Of a stretch of 36,037 bases of DNA, positions 1,588 through 14,046 are shown in pieces; position 1 is the stretch's first letter; every line of letters starts with the position of its first letter. Position numbers and translations under genes: made by a program. Under the pieces are notes generated by a model. It had not been told where the DNA came from, did no database searches, and was given only the letters and a program-made list of their open reading frames with translations. Source of the DNA: a virus; IMG/VR virus record IMGVR_UViG_3300045776_000084; one strand, written 5' to 3'.

Positions 1588-2043
1588 TTAGCCCTTCTGT
1601 CCCGGTGTTCCGACAGCGGCGGATGTGGTAGCAGTTGCTGGCGGAGTGGTCGGGTCAGTTAGTTCAGCTTTCAGCTCTGTGAGGCTCGTAGTGGGGTCTT
1701 TTTGTTTTGCTGCGGTTATCATAGCGGCGATGTCCGAGAAGGAAGCGGTGCCCTTGTTGATGGCATATGGTGCGGCAATTAGGCCAATGAGCGCGGTTAA
1801 AACTATTGGAAGGTTTGAAAGATACACACTCACCATAGCCACGTCAGTCAAGTGGGTTACGTGGTAGATAATCCGCTGAACGACCCACATAGTAAAAAAT
1901 GAAAACAAGAACATGAGCACCCGGGTGGATGAGGGTTCCCCGCTGGGCTCACTGATAAGCCCCCGCACGAAAGCTAGGGTTCGAGTTGTCCATCTCGTTA
2001 TGACCATCGAAAAGCCCCCCCTGTTAAGGGGGGCGGTATTCAT
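1588..2043 (-). CDS. Small integral membrane protein (3 predicted TM helices, PT-rich tail). The real start may be M13 at 2007, just after a terminator-like hairpin.
   Basis: Hydrophobic helices. ATGA overlap with the stop of the upstream ClpB-like gene. The GC hairpin 2014-2033 lies inside the first 12 codons. Confidence 0.45.
   Translation of the reverse strand: MNTAPLNRGGFSMVITRWTTRTLAFVRGLISEPSGEPSSTRVLMFLFSFFTMWVVQRIIYHVTHLTDVAMVSVYLSNLPIVLTALIGLIAAPYAINKGTASFSDIAAMITAAKQKDPTTSLTELKAELTDPTTPPATATTSAAVGTPGQKG
2014..2033 (-). terminator. GC-rich stem-loop (GCCCCCC-TTAACA-GGGGGGC) followed by TTTT on the minus strand, immediately after the ClpB-like stop
   Basis: Perfect 7-bp G/C stem and 6-nt loop seen directly. 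On the minus strand a T-run follows (plus 2010-2013 AAAA). Confidence 0.35.
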
Positions 2044-4568
2044 TTTTTACTCTCGGTGGGCTTCGGTTTTGGCTTCGTCACGGGGCGCTGGCGTCCCGTG
2101 TAGGAGACGGGCGGCTCATGGTTCAGTCGATCAATTTCACGCTCGGTCAAGCCCTCCTGCAATCGCTTCAGCAAGTTGTTGAGCCCGTGGACATCATCTA
2201 ATTTATTCACTTCATTATAAAGTTCGTTGGCCTTCTTCAGACGGGTCTTCGCTTCGGTGGGGCTGGTGGTCTGAAGCTTCTCCGCCATGACGGGAGCGAG
2301 CGCACCTTGGGTGAGGAGGGTAAACGTCAAGGTACCCGTCTTGTCTATGTCAATTGCAATCGTGTCACCAAGGGTGATTTGCCCACTAGATACAAGATTG
2401 GACAAGGGGGATACCAGCATCCTCTCAATGGTGCGTTTCAGGTGACGAGCCCCATACTTGGGGTCGATCCCCTCTTTTAGGAGCACAGTCTTTACCGCAT
2501 CAGAACAGGTAAAGACGAACTGGGAATTACCCACGCAACTGAGAATCCGCCGCTGCACGATACCCAACTCAATGTCAAGTATCTCCTTCAGGTGCTCCTC
2601 GCGGAGTGTTTTGAAGACCACAACCTTGTCGAGTCGGTTCATGAATTCAGGAGAGAATTTACGCTTCGCCGCCCCCTCTGCTACCCTCTCAATCTTTGTG
2701 TCAAACTGGTCATCTATAGAGCTGTCGGGGCTTCTGAACCCCATGCCGCCCTCTGCCAAACCCTGCATTTGGCTGGCTCCAAGGTTCGAGGTCATGACGA
2801 TAAGACAGCGGCTTAGGTCAACCCGGCGAGTGTCTCCAAGGGTAAGTGTGGCCTTGTCCAGAACCCCGAGCAGGAGGTTCCACAGGGAGTCAGAGGCTTT
2901 TTCGATTTCGTCAAAAAGGAGCAAAGTAATCTGGTGTTCGGGAGTATGCCATTGGTTTAACGCTTCTTGCGTCAGGAGGGGGTGAGTCTCACGGTGGCCC
3001 AGATATCCCGGTGGGCTATTCGACACCACCATGTTCTCTACCACATAAGACGTTTTTTCCTCCACAGAAAAATCATACACAAATCCCTCATACTCAACCT
3101 CATCGACGGCTTTTATACGGCTGTACACATAGTCGTCGTCCACATGAGCCATGCGTTGAATTCCTGAATTCCCCGGATTGAAGATGTTTATACTCTTCCC
3201 ACACATTGGAAGGTTTTGTACAAAAGACTGAATCTGCTCTCCCGCCATATACAAGCGGTAACGGGGAACTGTCTTATACCCTCGTTTGTCTGGTTTTGGT
3301 ACTTGGCGTTGCATTTGTGTAACAAACCCCAAATTATGGATTAGCAGCCGCATCTGACTAGCCAAATTTGGTGAAGAGGTAGAGTAATCAAGACGGCGGC
3401 GAACGGTCTTCCCCCCGTCGCCTAGAATTGCCGTATCAAGGAAATTCCACAGCAAATCAGGGCTCAACTGTAAAAACCACACTGGAAGATGCTTATTCAG
3501 TGTGTGGTCACCAAAGAGGTCGGCCATTAGGCGGCTAACAACCCGAGAATGGTAATGGATGCGGGTAGAGTGGCTCTTTCGCTCTCTAACATGAACCGCC
3601 CCACCAATAAATACCCGCCCCAGAATGTCTCGCACTTCCTGAACACATGGTTGTTCTTGGACTTGGCTACCAAAAGTAAAGTTGATGGTTTTACGAGATT
3701 TAGAATTACCTCCCTCGCTTACATAGAAACCCGCCAAACGAGTGAAGTCCTTATCCACCTTGATAAATCGGCGAATCTTAATCAAGTCCCCAACCCCCCC
3801 TTTACTCCACACATAGTCATCGTCAAAGCAGAGTTTGGGCATTACGGAGGCGTATTCAGCCAAATCAAGGGTGACCTCTGAGGGCTCAAGGTGTTGTCGA
3901 GGGTAGACGACCACATCCCCCTTTCTCAACTCTCCCGCAGGGACATACTGTAAATTTTCAGATTGGTATAAATTACTCAGGTCTCTTCCAGTTCTGGTGC
4001 TCGCTCGTCTCCCTACAAACGGTTGTTTAATCGCCCACACTTTGTGTGGTGAGGTACACACCACCGGGACATTACTGTTACCCACCATCAATCGGGTTAG
4101 TACACCTTTGTACTTATACTGGTGCAGAAAGGTGACAAGATGGGGCTCCCCGTTTTTAGTGATAACCCAGTCTCCCACCTTCACCTGTTCGATTGGTTTT
4201 GTAGTCCCGTCAGACAGGAGAACCCCAGTTCCCGGAATAAAACAGCCAACTAGTTTGGCAATTTCGTGTGAGTGCTGGAACTCAGCACAGTCGATTTTGA
4301 TGAGAGCTTGGGGGTTGTTGAATAGAGTCTCAGCGATAGCTTCAACGACCTTGGTTTTCCCGGTTCCGCTGGGTCCGAGAAACAGCAGGTTGCCGATGGG
4401 GCGTCCCGGTGCATTCAACCCGGCTAAAAACATCTGATAAATTTCGCTGACTTTCTGGATAGCGGCATCCTGACCAACTACTTTACTACGAAGAGTCTTC
4501 TCAAACTCTAAGGAGGCTTTACTCTTGCGGTTAGGGTCTAGCTGTTTAACGGCTCCCGTTGTTGACAT
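2040..4568 (-). CDS. ClpA/ClpB D2-type single-AAA+ ATPase precursor containing an intein (842 aa precursor, about 433 aa after splicing)
   Basis: Walker A GPSGTGKT. After the intein: SPPGYLGH, Walker B LLLFDEIEKA, sensor VMTSNLG, and a ClpB C-terminal domain motif YGARHLKRTIE. The extein junction KLVG|SPPGY matches ClpB RLVG-APPGYVGY. Confidence 0.8.
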   Translation of the reverse strand: MSTTGAVKQLDPNRKSKASLEFEKTLRSKVVGQDAAIQKVSEIYQMFLAGLNAPGRPIGNLLFLGPSGTGKTKVVEAIAETLFNNPQALIKIDCAEFQHSHEIAKLVGCFIPGTGVLLSDGTTKPIEQVKVGDWVITKNGEPHLVTFLHQYKYKGVLTRLMVGNSNVPVVCTSPHKVWAIKQPFVGRRASTRTGRDLSNLYQSENLQYVPAGELRKGDVVVYPRQHLEPSEVTLDLAEYASVMPKLCFDDDYVWSKGGVGDLIKIRRFIKVDKDFTRLAGFYVSEGGNSKSRKTINFTFGSQVQEQPCVQEVRDILGRVFIGGAVHVRERKSHSTRIHYHSRVVSRLMADLFGDHTLNKHLPVWFLQLSPDLLWNFLDTAILGDGGKTVRRRLDYSTSSPNLASQMRLLIHNLGFVTQMQRQVPKPDKRGYKTVPRYRLYMAGEQIQSFVQNLPMCGKSINIFNPGNSGIQRMAHVDDDYVYSRIKAVDEVEYEGFVYDFSVEEKTSYVVENMVVSNSPPGYLGHRETHPLLTQEALNQWHTPEHQITLLLFDEIEKASDSLWNLLLGVLDKATLTLGDTRRVDLSRCLIVMTSNLGASQMQGLAEGGMGFRSPDSSIDDQFDTKIERVAEGAAKRKFSPEFMNRLDKVVVFKTLREEHLKEILDIELGIVQRRILSCVGNSQFVFTCSDAVKTVLLKEGIDPKYGARHLKRTIERMLVSPLSNLVSSGQITLGDTIAIDIDKTGTLTFTLLTQGALAPVMAEKLQTTSPTEAKTRLKKANELYNEVNKLDDVHGLNNLLKRLQEGLTEREIDRLNHEPPVSYTGRQRPVTKPKPKPTESKK
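3018..4244 (-). mobile_element. Intein (409 aa) with LAGLIDADG homing endonuclease, inserted between LVG and SPPGY of the AAA+ ATPase
   Basis: Begins CFIPGTGVLLSDG (block A). Block B TSPHKVW. Two LAGLIDADG-like motifs (LAGFYVSEGG, ILGDGGK). Block F VYDFSVEE. Ends VVSN followed by a +1 Ser. Confidence 0.7.
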
Positions 4569-6248: not shown

Positions 6249-6665
6249 ATGAGGTGTGCAATGTTAAACAAAGGATATGTGTACGTCATCGGAAACCGGG
6301 AGCAGGGGCTGTATAAAATAGGGTCCTCCCGCATTGACCCCCTCTATCGACTAGAACAAATTCAGCCCCACTGTCCATTTGAACTGGAGATGATTGAATT
6401 CTCCCTCGTCAAAAATGCCAAAAGAATCGAACAACGGTTACATGAGTTCTTTGAGTATGATAGGTTACGAATCAACAGTAAATTCACCGATTGGTTTAAA
6501 TTAACTGCTGATAAGGTTAAGAAAATCGGAGCGGGCATACCCAAGGATGAGGTCATAGATGACCCCACCCTCCAGTTAAAAGCAGAGCCAACATCCACCC
6601 CACCTGAGCCTTATTGTAAAGCCTCTGAGTTTCAAGAAGGCTCAGGTCTACTCATTTCAACATAA
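6249..6665 (+). CDS. GIY-YIG superfamily / T5orf172 (MUG113-like) domain protein
   Basis: KGYVYVIGN...LYKIGSS...RLEQI motif near the N-terminus, typical of the T5orf172/GIY-YIG family. The likely real start is MLNKGY at 6261. Confidence 0.5.
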   Translation: MRCAMLNKGYVYVIGNREQGLYKIGSSRIDPLYRLEQIQPHCPFELEMIEFSLVKNAKRIEQRLHEFFEYDRLRINSKFTDWFKLTADKVKKIGAGIPKDEVIDDPTLQLKAEPTSTPPEPYCKASEFQEGSGLLIST

Positions 6666-7317
6666 GGCTATCTATAGTTCGAGTGAGGTTCTCTTTAGCT
6701 TGAGCAGTAAAGGCTGCTGCGAACTCAGTGGTAAAATATAAAGGGTCACGTTCGAGGAACCTGTTGAGGATGGCGGCTCTACCTTTACGGAATGCTTCTT
6801 CCGGTACAAAGGGCTTATACTCCAGCCAGATGTTGTTGCCGTTCCTTTCGAATACCTCCCAAGTTGATCCAAGGCTGGCCAAGTCCATGTCGGTGATGAC
6901 ACTCCCGGCTCCCGTGGTGTAGGTGGTAAGCATAATTTCGGCCATGGCTTCCTCAGCTTGGTTGTAGGTTACCCCCAGTGTCTGGGAGTCTCTCAGAAGC
7001 AGGGCAGCAGACCGTTCTTCGTTGTTCTGAGCCTTCGGGTCGTATTCCGCGTCATGGTAAGCCCATGCGAAGAACTCCACTGCGGTTAGTGATTTGGTGC
7101 ATAGCTCCTCATGGATTTCCAGACCATTAAAAATGTGGCCGAGGTCATGGTAGCGCCGATGGGGCTCGTTGTACTTCCGCACCAGCTTGAACAAAACATC
7201 CTGAATCCCGGCTTTGTCCTTGCCGGGTGCCCGGTCAACAAATTCTTGAAGGAAGTTCATACCTGTATGATACCAAAATACGAAAGGCGAGTCTAGAGCC
7301 GTCGCCAAATTTACCAA
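6652..7317 (-). CDS. Hypothetical protein, possibly an HD-superfamily phosphohydrolase (RRYHDLGHI motif)
   Basis: H-R-R-Y-H-D-L-G-H near the N-terminus, plus later His/Asp residues. The family assignment is from memory only. An alternative start is MNFLQEF at 7260. Confidence 0.4.
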   Translation of the reverse strand: MVNLATALDSPFVFWYHTGMNFLQEFVDRAPGKDKAGIQDVLFKLVRKYNEPHRRYHDLGHIFNGLEIHEELCTKSLTAVEFFAWAYHDAEYDPKAQNNEERSAALLLRDSQTLGVTYNQAEEAMAEIMLTTYTTGAGSVITDMDLASLGSTWEVFERNGNNIWLEYKPFVPEEAFRKGRAAILNRFLERDPLYFTTEFAAAFTAQAKENLTRTIDSLMLK

Positions 7318-9279: not shown

Positions 9280-9610
9280 CAGTCTCCTTGGGTCTGCGGG
9301 AGCAGGTATGCTCTAAATCGGGGTAGCAATCATCCAATCCGTTGGGACAGCCGTCGCAGGGGCTATTCTGAGGATTTAGTTCGGGCAAGGGCTCAACAGG
9401 AGCGTTGTGGATGGCATAGTCAACCCGTCCCCCCGTGTAAGCACAGTTCAGTGCCATCGCTACCTGCTGCTGGTCAGATTCGCTTAGCAGCTCTTTGATG
9501 TAGCTGAATTGAAGTAGGTCGTTAAACAACTCCTTCACAAATGCGTCCCGACGTTTGGCCTCATCAGGTTGGTAGATTACTCGGGCTTTCCAATTTGGTT
9601 CGCTCATCAC
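9269..9610 (-). CDS. Hypothetical protein (113 aa)
   Basis: ORF in the minus-strand array. A 4-nt overlap with the upstream HNH gene. Confidence 0.4.
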   Translation of the reverse strand: MMSEPNWKARVIYQPDEAKRRDAFVKELFNDLLQFSYIKELLSESDQQQVAMALNCAYTGGRVDYAIHNAPVEPLPELNPQNSPCDGCPNGLDDCYPDLEHTCSRRPKETDEN

Positions 9611-10299
9611 AGTGTACCATCGGAAGCGTCGGAAGCGTCACAATCACAGGGGCCGGGTTCTTCGGCAGGAGCGCGGCTGGTGGCACAGTCAGAGGTATGA
9701 GTTTTTTTACCGCTTTGCTTGATGTATTCGGCTGCTTGTTGTTCTCGATTCATACAGTTCCTCATAGCTTCATGGTCTCCGGGTTGACAGCCACCCGATG
9801 TTGTTTTAGCCTGATGACAGTTTGCACAGAGGAGTTGAAGGATATCGGGAAATCCGTTCCGGTATGCCCATGTGTATAAAGAGGTTCCCCCTCTTCCTGT
9901 CTTTTTTGATAAAATTTTACGATGTGCGGCACCGTCATTATTGATATGGTCTAATTGTAAATACTTCTCTACAGTCATTCCACAGCAAGCGCAGCAACCG
10001 CCGTATGCCTCTATGCTGGCCAATCGGTGTATATGGTAGTTTTGTTTCTGTTTTACACCGTGTGACTGCAAACATCTCGCACACATGCTTGAGTTTTCGA
10101 GATGGGGTACCCTACAACAATAACGACACAACCCCTGCTCAATGGCTCGATTCTTTGCGTTGAGGCTGTACCCAAGGTGCTCTTCATGACATTTCTGGCA
10201 CCGAGTCTTTCCTTCCCACCTCTCGCCCCCACATCGTACGCACAACCCTTGCTTTTTGTACTGCTGGTACTTTTTGTTTATCGTTCGTTTACGTGCCAT
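9607..10299 (-). CDS. HNH endonuclease with N-terminal Cys-rich zinc-ribbon repeats
   Basis: Several C-x2-C pairs. HNH core LQLDHINNDG ... LQLLCANCH. Start chosen at the ATG (MARKR) with a GAGGTG RBS 9 nt upstream. The track start at 10311 is a GTG. Confidence 0.65.
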   Translation of the reverse strand: MARKRTINKKYQQYKKQGLCVRCGGERWEGKTRCQKCHEEHLGYSLNAKNRAIEQGLCRYCCRVPHLENSSMCARCLQSHGVKQKQNYHIHRLASIEAYGGCCACCGMTVEKYLQLDHINNDGAAHRKILSKKTGRGGTSLYTWAYRNGFPDILQLLCANCHQAKTTSGGCQPGDHEAMRNCMNREQQAAEYIKQSGKKTHTSDCATSRAPAEEPGPCDCDASDASDGTL

Positions 10300-10334
10300 C
10301 TCTCCACACACCTCTACTAGAGGAGAGACAAAGT

Positions 10335-11348
10335 TTATTTTCTTAAGCCGTTGTACCTAACTACTTGTTCTTTCCAGTGAGTTGATGTCTGAACATGGCC
10401 TTTACGCACCCATTTCCCCACTAAACGTCTAAAATCCCCAAATTGAAAAGCAGCGGCAGGTCGGATAACGAACCCCTCTTGGCGGTTTAAGTCAAGCGAG
10501 GCACTGAGCTGGCTCACGAGGCTATCTGACCACAACCCCCTGTATAAAACCGGGACTACTGGAAGATGGAGCAGGGTCGCATACTCAACGGTATCATCCC
10601 ATGACAGGCATTTCAAATTCTCCCAGATGCCGAAGATGTAGAAGTACCCCTCTAGGTCGGTGTACTCGATGGAGTGTACGGCTGTTACGTTTTCTCCACA
10701 CAAGCGAAGCCCCTCCGGGATATCGTGGGCAATTTCAGCCCAGATTCGTTTTATGAACGTGCGGGAGGGGTGAGGTTCGTAATCAAGAGACCGGGCGTGC
10801 ATATAGTCGTGGTACAAAGTTGTACACTCGCCGTCTAGTTTCTCAGTAGCGATAACCTCCATGCCCTGCCACTGGTCAGTGGAGGCATGGATTTTGTCAT
10901 CGTCAGACGCACCGGGGGAGGTAGCGTAGTGAAATGTACGAGGATATTTTACCCGATTGGTGAATAGATGAAGGAGGGGTGCAAGCATTTTCTGCACTGG
11001 TTCTTCATCAAAAAGTTCTCCACGGAGGCGTAGTCCGCTTGGAAGAATGACGTTGCCCCACTTGTCGTAGCGGTCTTCGGGGCTAAGATGATCTGGTAGC
11101 CGAGGGGTTCCGACGTGAATAGCCGCCCGGATATCGTCGGCTGAGATAGTCGTGTTCTCCGCTCCCACATGACAGTCTGCACAGAGCGTGGCTCCGTTGT
11201 CGAGGTAGTATCCGCCATCGGTGAATAGTTTCCTTTCGATGATGTGGTGGGCAGCGTCTCCCGGCTGGCCGCAGATGACACACTTGTGCCCGTCTCTGGC
11301 GAAGACCCCTTCGCGGAACTCATTACGGGTTAGTAGTGTCGTTTCCAT
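10335..11348 (-). CDS. Fusion of an HNH-type nuclease domain (N-terminal) and an ATP-dependent RNA-ligase-like nucleotidyltransferase (Rnl2/pfam09414-like)
   Basis: N-terminal C-x2-C...HH...N...C-x2-CH (CVICGQPGDAAHHII...NGATLCADCH). Ligase motif I EKLDGE (KxDG without the +5 Arg typical of DNA ligases). Motif III FGIWE. Motif IV EGFVIRP. Motif V GKWVRKGH. Start taken at the ATG METTLL. The track start is a GTG. Confidence 0.55.
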   Translation of the reverse strand: METTLLTRNEFREGVFARDGHKCVICGQPGDAAHHIIERKLFTDGGYYLDNGATLCADCHVGAENTTISADDIRAAIHVGTPRLPDHLSPEDRYDKWGNVILPSGLRLRGELFDEEPVQKMLAPLLHLFTNRVKYPRTFHYATSPGASDDDKIHASTDQWQGMEVIATEKLDGECTTLYHDYMHARSLDYEPHPSRTFIKRIWAEIAHDIPEGLRLCGENVTAVHSIEYTDLEGYFYIFGIWENLKCLSWDDTVEYATLLHLPVVPVLYRGLWSDSLVSQLSASLDLNRQEGFVIRPAAAFQFGDFRRLVGKWVRKGHVQTSTHWKEQVVRYNGLRK

Positions 11349-11485: not shown

Positions 11486-12421
11486 TTACCACTTCCAACC
11501 GGGGTGGTTCATTCCAAGATGAGCAAAATACTTGAGGTCGCCCATGCTACCCGGAACGCTCACAAAGCTTTGGAACGACGCTGTCTTGGGCTCCTCCTTC
11601 TTCTCGGTCTCCTCTCCCGCAGGTTCAGACTCCTTCGCGGGGGCGTCATCCATGAAGAACTTGCTGGCATCCCCTCGGGTGGGTACCCCATCCTTGTCAT
11701 GCTTATTCTTCAGCCGGGTGATTTCGGAGTAACCCCAACCTTGGCGTTTCAGGCTCGGGTCGGTGTCAGATTCTGGAACCTTGTTCTCGAATTCGTACTT
11801 CGCCTTCATCATCCCTTCGAACGCCTTCTCAATCCCGTTGTCAGTGGTAAGGGTGTTCCACACATCCCCTTGAGGGGTCTCCAGCGTGGTGACGCCGTTG
11901 AGACGAATAATGAATGCGGTCTGTTTGTATTCGCTTCCTAGCCGCACCGCCGCCGCGTGTAAGTCCTGAGGGGACACCGTCTCCGGGTCGCCATTGACGA
12001 AGAACCAAGAACGTTCGGTAGTCTCTACAACTGACCCTTGGTTATTGCCTTCGGTATCTTTAGGGCCTTTCCGTTCTGACCAGTGGCCGAACAACTCAAA
12101 CGCCCCCACCTCAGCCGTACCCAATAGGGTTCTCAGTTTACGGGGCATCTCTTTGAAGTTGGCCTCATTGATCTGATTGACTTCAGCTTGAGTCTCTCCC
12201 TCCTCGGGTAGACGATAGGGGGTGATAATCATAAAGTCCACATTGGACTTGAAATGGGTCAGGAGACGGCTCAAGCCAGCCTTTGCCAACCGAATAGCCC
12301 CCGCTACTTTTAGCTTCAGACGGTCACCAGAACAGTACACAGAATCTTCATCAAACGTGTCCAACAGTTTGGGAATTGGCTTAGCTTGCTTATTACTCAA
12401 AAACTTGGATTCGAATTTCAT
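11486..12421 (-). CDS. Hypothetical protein (311 aa) with an acidic/lysine-rich middle region
   Basis: Long ORF. TAGAGGTG RBS upstream. A promoter-like CAGACA-17 nt-TATAAG lies upstream (12434-12462). Confidence 0.5.
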   Translation of the reverse strand: MKFESKFLSNKQAKPIPKLLDTFDEDSVYCSGDRLKLKVAGAIRLAKAGLSRLLTHFKSNVDFMIITPYRLPEEGETQAEVNQINEANFKEMPRKLRTLLGTAEVGAFELFGHWSERKGPKDTEGNNQGSVVETTERSWFFVNGDPETVSPQDLHAAAVRLGSEYKQTAFIIRLNGVTTLETPQGDVWNTLTTDNGIEKAFEGMMKAKYEFENKVPESDTDPSLKRQGWGYSEITRLKNKHDKDGVPTRGDASKFFMDDAPAKESEPAGEETEKKEEPKTASFQSFVSVPGSMGDLKYFAHLGMNHPGWKW

Positions 12422-13260: not shown

Positions 13261-14046
13261 CTATAGTTGGTCTTTATGCTTAACAAGTTGATTCAACAAA
13301 CAGTCATCGGCTCTTTTGTCGTTTCGTTTACGAAGAAGCACTGGCTGTACAATATGATTGCTTCGCGTGGCGTAAAGATAGCGGACTTCAACTACATCCA
13401 ACTTATTCAATTGGAACTTTCCACGAAGAGACACCCCCGAGACCTCATATAGCCGTCCCCGTTCGTCGTAGACACCAATGCGAACGCTGTTGTGGCCTTC
13501 CGGGCTGGGTCCGATAACCACAGCATCTAAAGTGCGAGTGAACTTCAGCTTGAAGTGATTCCCAGAACGACCCTCACTGTAGGACTTAGCCATGTTTTTG
13601 ATGACCACGCCCTCGGAATGGGACTCCAACAGGGCAATGACCAGCTTAATTTTGGCGGTATCGTCGCGGGTGGTCTTAACCGGGATGATGCGAGGGCTGA
13701 ATCCGTCGAACTCAGCATGATAGCGGGATTCGCGGTACTCGTAGGCATCGTGGATGATGGTCTCATCACCTAAAATTAGGGAATCGAACACGTGGATGGT
13801 GCTCTTTACTAGCTCCACGTCGATGACGAATTGCTCAAGAGGGTGGGAACGAAGGGCGTTGATGAGAACCACGGGGAGGGGTTTTCCACTCTCGCCTTCC
13901 CGGTTCCAGTTACGGATGGTTTTCCCCTGCTTGCAAATCGTCCGCCGTTCTCCGTTGAACTTCTCCTGAAATCCATAGTTGGAGTTATGGATGAACCGCT
14001 CCAACTGCTCTTGCGTGATTTCAGTGAGTAGTTCAGACTTAATCAT
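13261..14046 (-). CDS. Compact ATP-dependent nucleic-acid (probably DNA) ligase of the nucleotidyltransferase superfamily, with a variant motif I K-F-N-G-E-R
   Basis: Motif I EKFNGER. Motif III VIDVELV. Motif IV EGVVIKN. Motif V HFKLKF. A partial OB-like C-terminus. GAGG RBS. Confidence 0.6.
   Translation of the reverse strand: MIKSELLTEITQEQLERFIHNSNYGFQEKFNGERRTICKQGKTIRNWNREGESGKPLPVVLINALRSHPLEQFVIDVELVKSTIHVFDSLILGDETIIHDAYEYRESRYHAEFDGFSPRIIPVKTTRDDTAKIKLVIALLESHSEGVVIKNMAKSYSEGRSGNHFKLKFTRTLDAVVIGPSPEGHNSVRIGVYDERGRLYEVSGVSLRGKFQLNKLDVVEVRYLYATRSNHIVQPVLLRKRNDKRADDCLLNQLVKHKDQL

Follow-up and report, generated by a model that had tools for sequence, protein, structure and literature searches.

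Fusions of an HNH nuclease domain to an RNA ligase of the Rnl2 family (hereafter HNH-Rnl) have been recognised before. Gene 233 of HGTV-1 was annotated in 2013 as 'RNA ligase; HNH endonuclease domain', and the paper of Iyer et al. (2021; PMC7824862) notes the fusion in an RNA-repair context, citing Burroughs & Aravind (2016), and proposes that the nuclease hits competitor DNA while the ligase mends RNA. Among bacterial enzymes, the ligase of the Runella HD-Pnk operon forms ligase-AMP and seals none of the standard 3'-OH/5'-PO4 substrates tried, and its natural substrate was reported as unknown (Munir et al., 2018; PMC6097658). For mobile endonucleases, hairpins that sequester the ribosome-binding site are a documented means of control, described for I-TevI, I-TevII, I-TevIII, segB and mobE (Edgell et al., 2010; PMC2988022). 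Here, we describe two neighbouring minus-strand genes, A and B, in the virus record IMGVR_UViG_3300045776_000084 of IMG/VR, a stretch of 36,037 nucleotides (nt) that we refer to as the window. The joint explanation that accounts best for both genes, and that we consider likely to be correct, is that gene B encodes a break-repair ligase fused to an HNH domain and gene A a homing endonuclease that parasitises the ligase gene.

A nuclease-ligase fusion of large phages

An earlier note on this DNA had pointed out two adjacent, co-oriented minus-strand genes with HNH cores, the second fused to an RNA-ligase-like domain. Pfam and PHROG searches and alignments bear out these domain calls, and the fusion is recovered both by Pfam and as PHROG 24030, although its product comprises 337 instead of 338 amino acids (aa). 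Gene B is organised as follows:

10335..11348, minus strand: gene B, encoding a fusion of HNH nuclease and RNA ligase (337 aa, then the stop codon), ATG start at METTLL
11145..11348, minus strand: HNH (beta-beta-alpha-metal) nuclease domain, aa 1-68, with C23-x2-C26, H34-H35, N51, C56-x2-C59-H60 and E64
10959..11144, minus strand: linker between nuclease and ligase, aa 69-130, with the invariant residues P85, D95, W97, R107 and G110
10338..10958, minus strand: minimal ATP-dependent ligase nucleotidyltransferase core, aa 131-337, with KYPRT (134-138), motif I K170-LDGE, E219-N220, E291-G292 and K312/R315

The N-terminal region is identified as HNH by its profile match (aa 23-62, PF01844, 1.2e-6, exceeding the gathering threshold), by its His-Asn-His triad and CxxC zinc ligands, and by its beta-beta-alpha fold, whose closest structural neighbours, McrA, the HNH protein of phage GVE2 and IscB, all cut DNA. 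Residues 164-314 match positions 2-171 of the 171-position RNA_ligase profile PF09414 (1.8e-28; 100.2 bits against a cut-off of 27), and nearly the entire protein (aa 5-337) aligns to positions 3-342 of 342 of phrog_24030 ('RNA ligase') at 3.2e-112. The nucleotidyltransferase fold is superimposable on solved RNA ligases, with T4 Rnl2, NgrRnl and REL1 being the closest. In an alignment of 141 full-length homologues with 30-63% identity, including that of the archaeal virus HGTV-1 at 30%, the zinc ligands C23, C26 and C56 and the catalytic HNH residues H34, H35, N51, H60 and E64 are essentially invariant, position 59 is occupied by Cys or His, and the ligase residues K170, E219-N220, E291-G292, K312 and R315 are each kept in at least 140 sequences. 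Both the nuclease and the ligase centre are thus intact, and strong purifying selection acts on them.

The motifs highlighted in the earlier note, KLDGE, E291-G-F-V-I-R-P297 and K312-W-V-R-K316, are all present. However, K316 is variable, with only 73 of the 141 homologues retaining it, so that the conserved pair in motif V is K312/R315 rather than K-x-x-x-K. The absence of an Arg after KxDG is normal for RNA ligases. Gene B ends about 20 aa past motif V, and its predicted model contains no extra C-terminal domain; the domain found at this end of T4 Rnl2 is thus missing. The linker, by comparison, is modelled with confidence (predicted local distance difference test, pLDDT, 87-95) and is as conserved as the HNH domain, with one homologue (P0222; homologous proteins are given P numbers and genomic loci L numbers) carrying an insert of about 185 aa inside it.

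A fusion of this kind had been regarded as unusual. Our results instead show that gene B is one more member of a large, catalogued jumbo-phage family, so that the fusion itself is not new: apart from PHROG 24030 and the two published descriptions mentioned above, a large protein database contains 1890 matches, the best 120 of which are all about 335-350 aa long with 96-100% coverage, and the N-terminal 130 aa alone retrieve at least 344 clusters at 50% identity (E<=1e-10), with the module always in N-terminal position. Searches with tblastn detected the full-length fusion in at least 17 phage records at 97-99% query coverage, all of them from large phages (144-485 kb, 16 of the 17 exceeding 200 kb), and the best phage matches overall stem without exception from genomes of 144-735 kb. 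The carriers comprise Salicola phage SCTP-2, the Caulobacter phages CcrBL9, CcrSC and C1 with their relatives, Ralstonia phage RsoM2USA, Acinetobacter phage ME3, HGTV-1 and metagenomic huge phages. Identity to gene B amounts to 40-52% for the proteins of SCTP-2, CcrBL9, RsoM2USA and ME3 and to 30% for that of HGTV-1, five cultured phages whose finished genomes all encode the full-length architecture. The ligase gene is all that the window has in common with SCTP-2, CcrBL9, ME3 and locus L008. An identical gene B protein is encoded on 11 metagenome contigs, and the four occurrences displayed come from four different Joint Genome Institute (JGI) samples. Comparison of split and fused versions in related phages, as proposed in the earlier note, did yield ligase-only genes (in phages XacN1, Phosso and Atu_ph07), but a tblastn search with gene B aa 1-130 detected no separate HNH gene adjacent to them.

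The HNH-Rnl ligase gene is also a hot spot for mobile endonucleases. In five homologues (P0210, P0218, P0273, P0324 and P0284), an intein is inserted right after motif I (KMDGE/C...HN/C), with its +1 cysteine corresponding to C175 of gene B. Four of these proteins (P0210, P0218, P0273 and P0324), each about 700 aa long, carry a LAGLIDADG endonuclease within the intein; the 530-aa homologue P0284 has an intein match without a LAGLIDADG hit.

Relatives of the ligase core and the proposed substrate

When genomes of prokaryotes were scanned, one per species, 578 loci related to gene B emerged, the best 80 of which were examined. About 20 of them encode the full fusion, mostly on contigs of phage-like size from metagenome-assembled genomes and in three cases in isolates. 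The other 60 or so have nothing but the ligase core, which shares about 50% identity with gene B aa 131-337 and is found in genomes that include Paenibacillus, Brevibacillus, Lysinibacillus, Streptomyces and Deinococcus. These bacterial proteins begin at M-R-x-H/Y-Y-P-R-T, equivalent to K134-Y-P-R-T of gene B, and contain neither the HNH domain nor the linker, which identifies residues 1-130 of gene B as a phage-type addition. Apparent N-terminal extensions of the Streptomyces and Deinococcus ligases, seen when tblastn was started from residue 59, were rejected as spurious high-GC matches, the proteins themselves starting at M-R-x-H-Y-P-R-T.

Clustering of the neighbouring proteins revealed that, in 41 of the ligase-only loci, the core lies adjacent to or is fused with a protein that combines a kinase (AAA_33) and an HD domain. 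This partner shows either domain order, and its open reading frame (ORF) frequently overlaps that of the ligase. In Streptomyces and Planomonospora (L066, L070, L091 and L092), ligase core and polynucleotide kinase are part of a single polypeptide of 558-695 aa; in other bacteria, they are encoded by separate neighbouring genes, in either order. In Paenibacillus loci such as L033 (7784-10580), two further proteins recur 3' of the Pnk-HD/ligase pair and may represent additional members of this bacterial cassette, namely a SUFU-like protein (PF05076) in 14 loci and a DUF6138 protein in eight. Enzymes of the same kind are found beside some of the phage-type fusions: a T4-type Pnkp precedes the fusion in L008, the closest relative of gene B (63% identity), HD-Pnk follows it in L029, RtcB precedes it in L025, and a second PF09414 ligase does so in L030. 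The placement of the ligase core beside or in one polypeptide with HD-Pnk, together with that of the fusions next to Pnkp, HD-Pnk and RtcB, lends support to a role in break repair. Judged from their sequences, the core of gene B appears to fall into a clade of small, HD-Pnk-associated bacterial ligases, to which the Runella enzyme is assigned by its gene arrangement only. This link between the phage HNH-Rnl family and the bacterial ligases is modestly new.

Building on these domain identities, conserved residues and genomic associations, an enzymology and a substrate can be proposed for gene B. Most likely, it carries out the sealing step when the phage repairs breaks, in the course of which K170 would be adenylylated and the AMP transferred to a 5'-phosphate, followed by attack of a 3'-OH. 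The most probable substrate would be RNA cut by host nucleases, with end healing provided in trans by Pnkp, HD-Pnk or RtcB-type enzymes. HNH enzymes leave 3'-OH/5'-PO4 ends, which are the ends needed by a ligase. The HNH domain of gene B could thus make or trim ends on the substrate of the ligase, or it could act separately as an offensive DNase on competitor DNA. A function of the ligase in repair or counter-defence, as envisaged in the earlier note, is therefore plausible in view of the HD-Pnk, Pnkp and RtcB associations, although no healing enzyme was recognised in the window itself. The Pth2 gene that had been cited in favour of counter-defence is indeed present (28478..28906, minus strand; PF01981 at 1.1e-5, above threshold), at a distance of 17 kb from the ligase gene.

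Several observations weigh against a role of gene B in RNA break repair. Neither a recognisable Pnkp, HD-Pnk or RtcB nor a tRNA gene was found in the window, and the 311-aa ORF directly upstream of gene B (11486..12421, minus strand), which occupies the slot held by Pnkp in L008, has no Pfam or PHROG match and no P-loop. There is no recurrent partner around the fusions either, with no Pfam family appearing in more than two of the 72 neighbour proteins of 20 fused loci. Moreover, the Runella ligase, a related bacterial enzyme that has been assayed and whose clade membership follows from gene order, sealed no standard 3'-OH/5'-PO4 substrate, and our literature search retrieved computational descriptions of the HNH-Rnl family and no experimental study. 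Finally, Deinococcus HD-Pnk reportedly aids resistance to ionising radiation and mitomycin C, and this tie to DNA damage means that the substrate could be DNA.

Such a DNA substrate, or a hybrid one consisting of DNA with embedded or terminal ribonucleotides, is the basis of a serious rival explanation, albeit one that we regard as rather unlikely. In this case, the HNH-ligase would nick and reseal, or repair nicks, during genome processing or upon DNA damage. The idea draws on the fact that HNH enzymes are overwhelmingly DNases, among them the closest structural matches of the gene B domain (McrA, GVE2 HNH and IscB), on the published description of HD-Pnk as a DNA/RNA end-healing enzyme, on the presence of genes for Ku and a minimal DNA ligase in the same window, and on the failure of the Runella enzyme to seal any standard substrate. 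However, the core of gene B has the PF09414 RNA-ligase fold and lacks the OB domain of DNA ligases, the neighbours at some loci are RNA-repair proteins (RtcB, T4-type Pnkp and a second RNA ligase), and the window already possesses a separate ATP-dependent DNA ligase at 13261..14046. Whichever polynucleotide is joined, phage fusions with an invariant nuclease site would provide a second handle on what the members of this orphan ligase clade join.

Gene A and its association with ligase genes

The gene directly downstream of gene B has the following features:

9607..10299, minus strand: gene A, encoding a putative free-standing HNH endonuclease with zinc ribbons (230 aa, then the stop codon), ATG start at MARKRT
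10066..10242, minus strand: two CxxC...CxxC zinc ribbons, aa 20-78
9772..10005, minus strand: HNH core, aa 99-176, with C103/C105/C106, KYLQLD117-H118, LLC158-x2-C161-H162-QAKT and C171...D175-H176
9610..9771, minus strand: acidic and Pro-rich C-terminal tail, aa 177-230, lineage-specific, predicted with low confidence and absent from most homologues
10299..10328, minus strand: mRNA hairpin with a 7-bp stem formed by UCUCUCC (10328-10322) and GGAGAGA (10305-10299)

An alternative GTG start lies four codons upstream (9607..10311, 234 aa), but the ATG is favoured by the JGI gene call and by the N-termini of the homologues. The Pfam HNH match of gene A is weak (E=0.11) and the PHROG HNH match stronger (4e-5); together with the catalytic residues and the fold, it identifies the protein as an HNH endonuclease, and tblastn retrieves annotated HNH endonucleases of actinophages and cyanophages. 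The multiple zinc ribbons mentioned in the earlier note prove to be two, and they are invariant in an alignment of 32 homologues, as are D117-H118 and C158-x2-C161-H162. Most of the roughly 80 homologues are 170-190 aa long, with the copy in the window having a tail of about 55 additional residues, whose last part (aa 201-230) reaches a pLDDT of only about 53-58 in the predicted model. Comparison of the HNH domains of gene A and gene B by BLASTP showed that they have nothing but the CxxCH motif in common. The two genes, which the earlier note had taken as a tandem nuclease unit, thus carry unrelated HNH domains, and gene A behaves like a selfish element.

This behaviour becomes apparent from the genomic surroundings of its homologues. 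Of 12 contexts, 9 have the homologue beside or within a gene of the ligase family, and all four relative orientations are represented:

Window, L096 and L097: directly downstream of the HNH-Rnl gene, co-oriented
L099, L100 and L102: directly downstream of a ligase-only gene (at a distance of 35 nt in L099)
L093 and L105: convergent with the HNH-Rnl gene, overlapping its 3' end
L098 and L107: directly upstream of a ligase-only gene, overlapping it
L103: divergent from a ligase-only gene
L106: homologue with an in-frame stop, located between a 5' remnant of HNH-Rnl and an intact ligase core
L109: homologue in frame with the final 46 codons of a ligase that is deleted apart from these, forming a fusion
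L094, L095 and L101: without an RNA ligase of this family in the vicinity
L104 (contig edge) and L108 (32% identity): uninformative, without a ligase

In L106, the remnant corresponds to HNH-Rnl aa 73-138, contains a stop itself and ends at KYPRT, exactly where the intact core begins. A GIY-YIG/NUMOD-type homing endonuclease gene (2457-3149, plus strand) is inserted just upstream, at the same hot spot. Gene A itself was called directly downstream of gene B in all three displayed contigs that extend past the latter (L001-L003). Seen from the side of the ligase, however, the picture is different: no gene A homologue is present in any of 88 ligase loci retrieved independently, where apparent hits traced back to the ligase remnant on P0143, the L109 protein, and gene A is also absent from the closest relatives of gene B (P0002, P0006 and P0009). 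The association is therefore strong in one direction only, and the adjacency of the two genes reflects neither chance nor an operon. The variable position and orientation, the split genes, the decayed copies and the absence from the 88 loci constitute the behaviour of a homing endonuclease towards its target, comparable to that of mobE and nrd in T-even phages, and gene A is, on the strength of these comparisons, probably a free-standing homing endonuclease that targets the ligase gene. Its insertions may lie immediately 3' of the ligase gene, immediately 5' of the core or within the gene, in any orientation, and would then decay over time.

The junction between the two genes contains a further element that is consistent with mobile endonucleases. 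The earlier note had drawn attention to a palindrome, CCTCTA-C-TAGAGG, which does exist and lies within a hairpin, although its position is 10311-10323 rather than 10308-10320 and it is not a special signal on its own. While unique as a sequence, it belongs to a class of perfect 6+1+6 palindromes that occurs in the window at chance frequency (11 compared with 8.8 expected). Inverted-repeat searches and minimum free energy (MFE) folding place it (CCTCTAnTAGAGG, 10311-10323) in the loop of the gene A mRNA hairpin listed above, the 3' arm of which consists of the Shine-Dalgarno sequence and the A of the gene A AUG. Strong hairpins precede five gene A homologues, with z scores of -3.3 in L096, -5.8 in L098, -5.3 in L099, -4.4 in L107 and -3.3 in L093. 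Their stem sequences differ among loci, but the 3' arm always includes the Shine-Dalgarno sequence, at 2-10 nt from the AUG that follows. A scan of the gene A/gene B junction detected no terminator or promoter. By analogy, the best reading of the palindrome is that it belongs to a degenerate or weak copy of the Shine-Dalgarno-sequestering hairpin of this family, which would throttle translation of gene A.

The homing interpretation also has evidence to contend with. The hairpin in the window does not stand out from shuffled sequences in its folding (z -0.2 to -1), the sample of gene A contexts is small (about 12), and neither a cleavage site of gene A nor an empty-site allele in a close relative was identified. 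In addition, four of the ligase-linked contexts pair the gene A homologue with a ligase-only gene and could thus represent a functional, 'split' nuclease-ligase. Accordingly, gene A might be a genuine partner of the ligase, providing a zinc-ribbon HNH nuclease in trans to a two-component cut-and-seal system that would be the split counterpart of HNH-Rnl. The tight linkage of gene A homologues to the ligase family, the operon-like overlap upstream of the ligase-only genes in L098 and L107, the short distance downstream of the one in L099, and the tie of two independent kinds of HNH to one ligase family all speak for such a partnership. We nevertheless consider it unlikely, given that homologues can be convergent with the ligase gene (L093) or divergent from it (L103), that one is a pseudogene although its neighbouring ligase is intact (L106), that another is intact although its neighbouring ligase is destroyed (L109), and that a lone copy has no RNA ligase of this family nearby (L094). 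Moreover, homologues are missing from all 88 ligase loci that were sampled independently, those of cultured phages among them, the ligases of the window and of L096 already come with an HNH domain of their own, and other mobile endonucleases (GIY-YIG, LAGLIDADG inteins) have struck the same ligase gene. With its genes in pieces and its decay intermediates, the gene A family illustrates how repair genes of phages are remodelled by mobile endonucleases in nature, and it possibly shows how nuclease-enzyme fusions arise. For annotation, it means that the 'tandem HNH nucleases' of this locus are not one system.

The fused HNH domain, the remaining window and known systems

Two other explanations concern the HNH domain of gene B, and we hold both to be quite improbable. 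According to the first, the domain has ceased to be a nuclease and provides the minimal ligase with a zinc-stabilised module that binds nucleic acid or acts as a clamp, much like the N-terminal OB module of Rnl5 or the C-terminal domain of Rnl2. Rnl2 and Rnl5 each need an accessory domain for nick sensing, and the core of gene B on its own lacks one. Furthermore, the overall plan, with an N-terminal module of about 130 aa followed by the nucleotidyltransferase and its lysine at position 170, resembles that of Rnl5, and the linker is conserved to the same extent as the HNH domain. However, the bacterial ligase-only homologues do without the module, and across the 141 sequences not only the zinc cysteines but also the general-base His (H34/H35), N51, H60 and E64 are invariant, which a structural role would not need; a purely structural domain is unlikely given these invariant catalytic residues.

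The second explanation sees in gene B a self-contained heal-and-seal enzyme, with the HNH domain processing the ends in place of the HD-Pnk partner of the bacterial ligases. This domain would cleave the P-O3' bond of a 2',3'-cyclic phosphate or clip off a damaged terminal nucleotide, and thereby produce the ends required by this 'substrate-orphan' ligase clade. As a corollary, the fused domain may descend from a homing endonuclease that was domesticated after its capture at the KYPRT boundary, where L098, L106 and L107 display gene A-type insertions. That the fusion of gene B is an assembly or frameshift artefact joining two separate genes, which the earlier note had named as a possible refutation, can be dismissed with near certainty on account of the same 337-aa protein on 11 contigs, the architecture in finished genomes and in more than 140 aligned homologues, and the conserved, confidently modelled linker. 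A break-repair ligase fused to an HNH nuclease, accompanied by a homing endonuclease, hence stays our preferred account of the locus.

The window as a whole is a fragment of a huge (jumbo) phage, which also encodes a collagen-like tail fibre. Its other noteworthy genes are:

2040-4568, minus strand: 842-aa ClpB/AAA_2-type ATPase with an apparent intein (Pfam Hom_end_hint, Intein_splicing); the counterpart on related contigs has 405-420 aa and no intein
6249-6665, plus strand: 138-aa T5orf172/MUG113 (GIY-YIG-like) protein, PF13455 at 9e-14, on the strand opposite to its neighbours and probably another mobile endonuclease of the region
6652-7317, minus strand: 221-aa protein with a PHROG 'phosphohydrolase' match (4.7e-25), HD-like motifs (YHDLGH ... 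YHDAEYD) and no Pfam or PDB sequence match; a candidate end-processing enzyme
13261-14046, minus strand: 261-aa minimal ATP-dependent DNA ligase, PF01068 at 1.9e-9
25888-28347, minus strand: 819-aa protein with Major Vault Protein shoulder and vault-repeat domains, PF11978 at 3.5e-26, odd for a phage
29005-29913, minus strand: 302-aa protein with an R2K-clade ATP-grasp domain, PF14243 at 6e-18
30254-31240, minus strand: Ku homologue, PF02735 at 1.7e-20
35427-36029, minus strand: UvrB-like protein (Helicase_C, UvrB, UVR motifs), represented by its C-terminal part and running off the end of the window

Synteny of the small DNA ligase gene with the HNH-Rnl gene is seen in relatives (the P0009 contig and L106), and the presence of this ligase together with Ku suggests that the phage has end-joining capacity. 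Homologues of the vault-like protein, at 41% identity, were found only in the metagenomic huge phages LR756500, LR756501 and LR756503; the genomes of LR756500 and LR756501 measure 462-735 kb, and the HNH-ligase gene of LR756500 is located 2 kb from the vault-like protein.

In comparison with known systems, gene B matches the jumbo-phage HNH-Rnl fusions (PHROG 24030, HGTV-1 gene 233) in architecture, length and residues, without any structural difference. To T4 Rnl2 and kinetoplastid REL1, the prototypes of PF09414, it shows only about 20% identity, and an HMMER search of the PDB with its family profile retrieved no solved ligase by sequence and no NgrRnl chain at E<=10. The C-terminal domain that it lacks is the all-helical one with which T4 Rnl2 seals nicked duplexes; conversely, it has an N-terminal KYPRTxH...SPG...DDR segment and an N-terminal HNH domain that are absent from T4 Rnl2. 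Its plan is similar to that of Rnl5 (Deinococcus DraRnl and Naegleria NgrRnl), except that the N-terminal module is made up of HNH and linker instead of being OB-like, and with no detectable sequence similarity to Rnl5 it is not assigned to that family. The bacterial core homologues show the same arrangement as the HD-Pnk operon of Runella slithyformis, with kinase and HD domains encoded adjacent to, overlapping with or fused to the ligase; this adjacency is seen for 41 bacterial core loci and the phage-type locus L029, and not in the window.

Gene A, for its part, belongs to a different sequence family than the T4-type endonucleases and has no NUMOD or IENR modules. It nonetheless resembles T4-like homing endonucleases (mobE, I-TevIII-type) in being a small HNH protein with extra zinc modules of the DNA-binding type that occurs sporadically and is bound to one conserved host gene, and both groups are preceded by hairpins that bury the Shine-Dalgarno sequence. 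Our literature search returned no report of an RNA-ligase gene as a homing target, and a homing-endonuclease family specialised on such a gene, as indicated by the sequence comparisons, appears to be a modestly new recognition. Its closest parallel is provided by the homologue that splits the ligase gene in L106, much as mobE splits nrdA in phage Aeh1.

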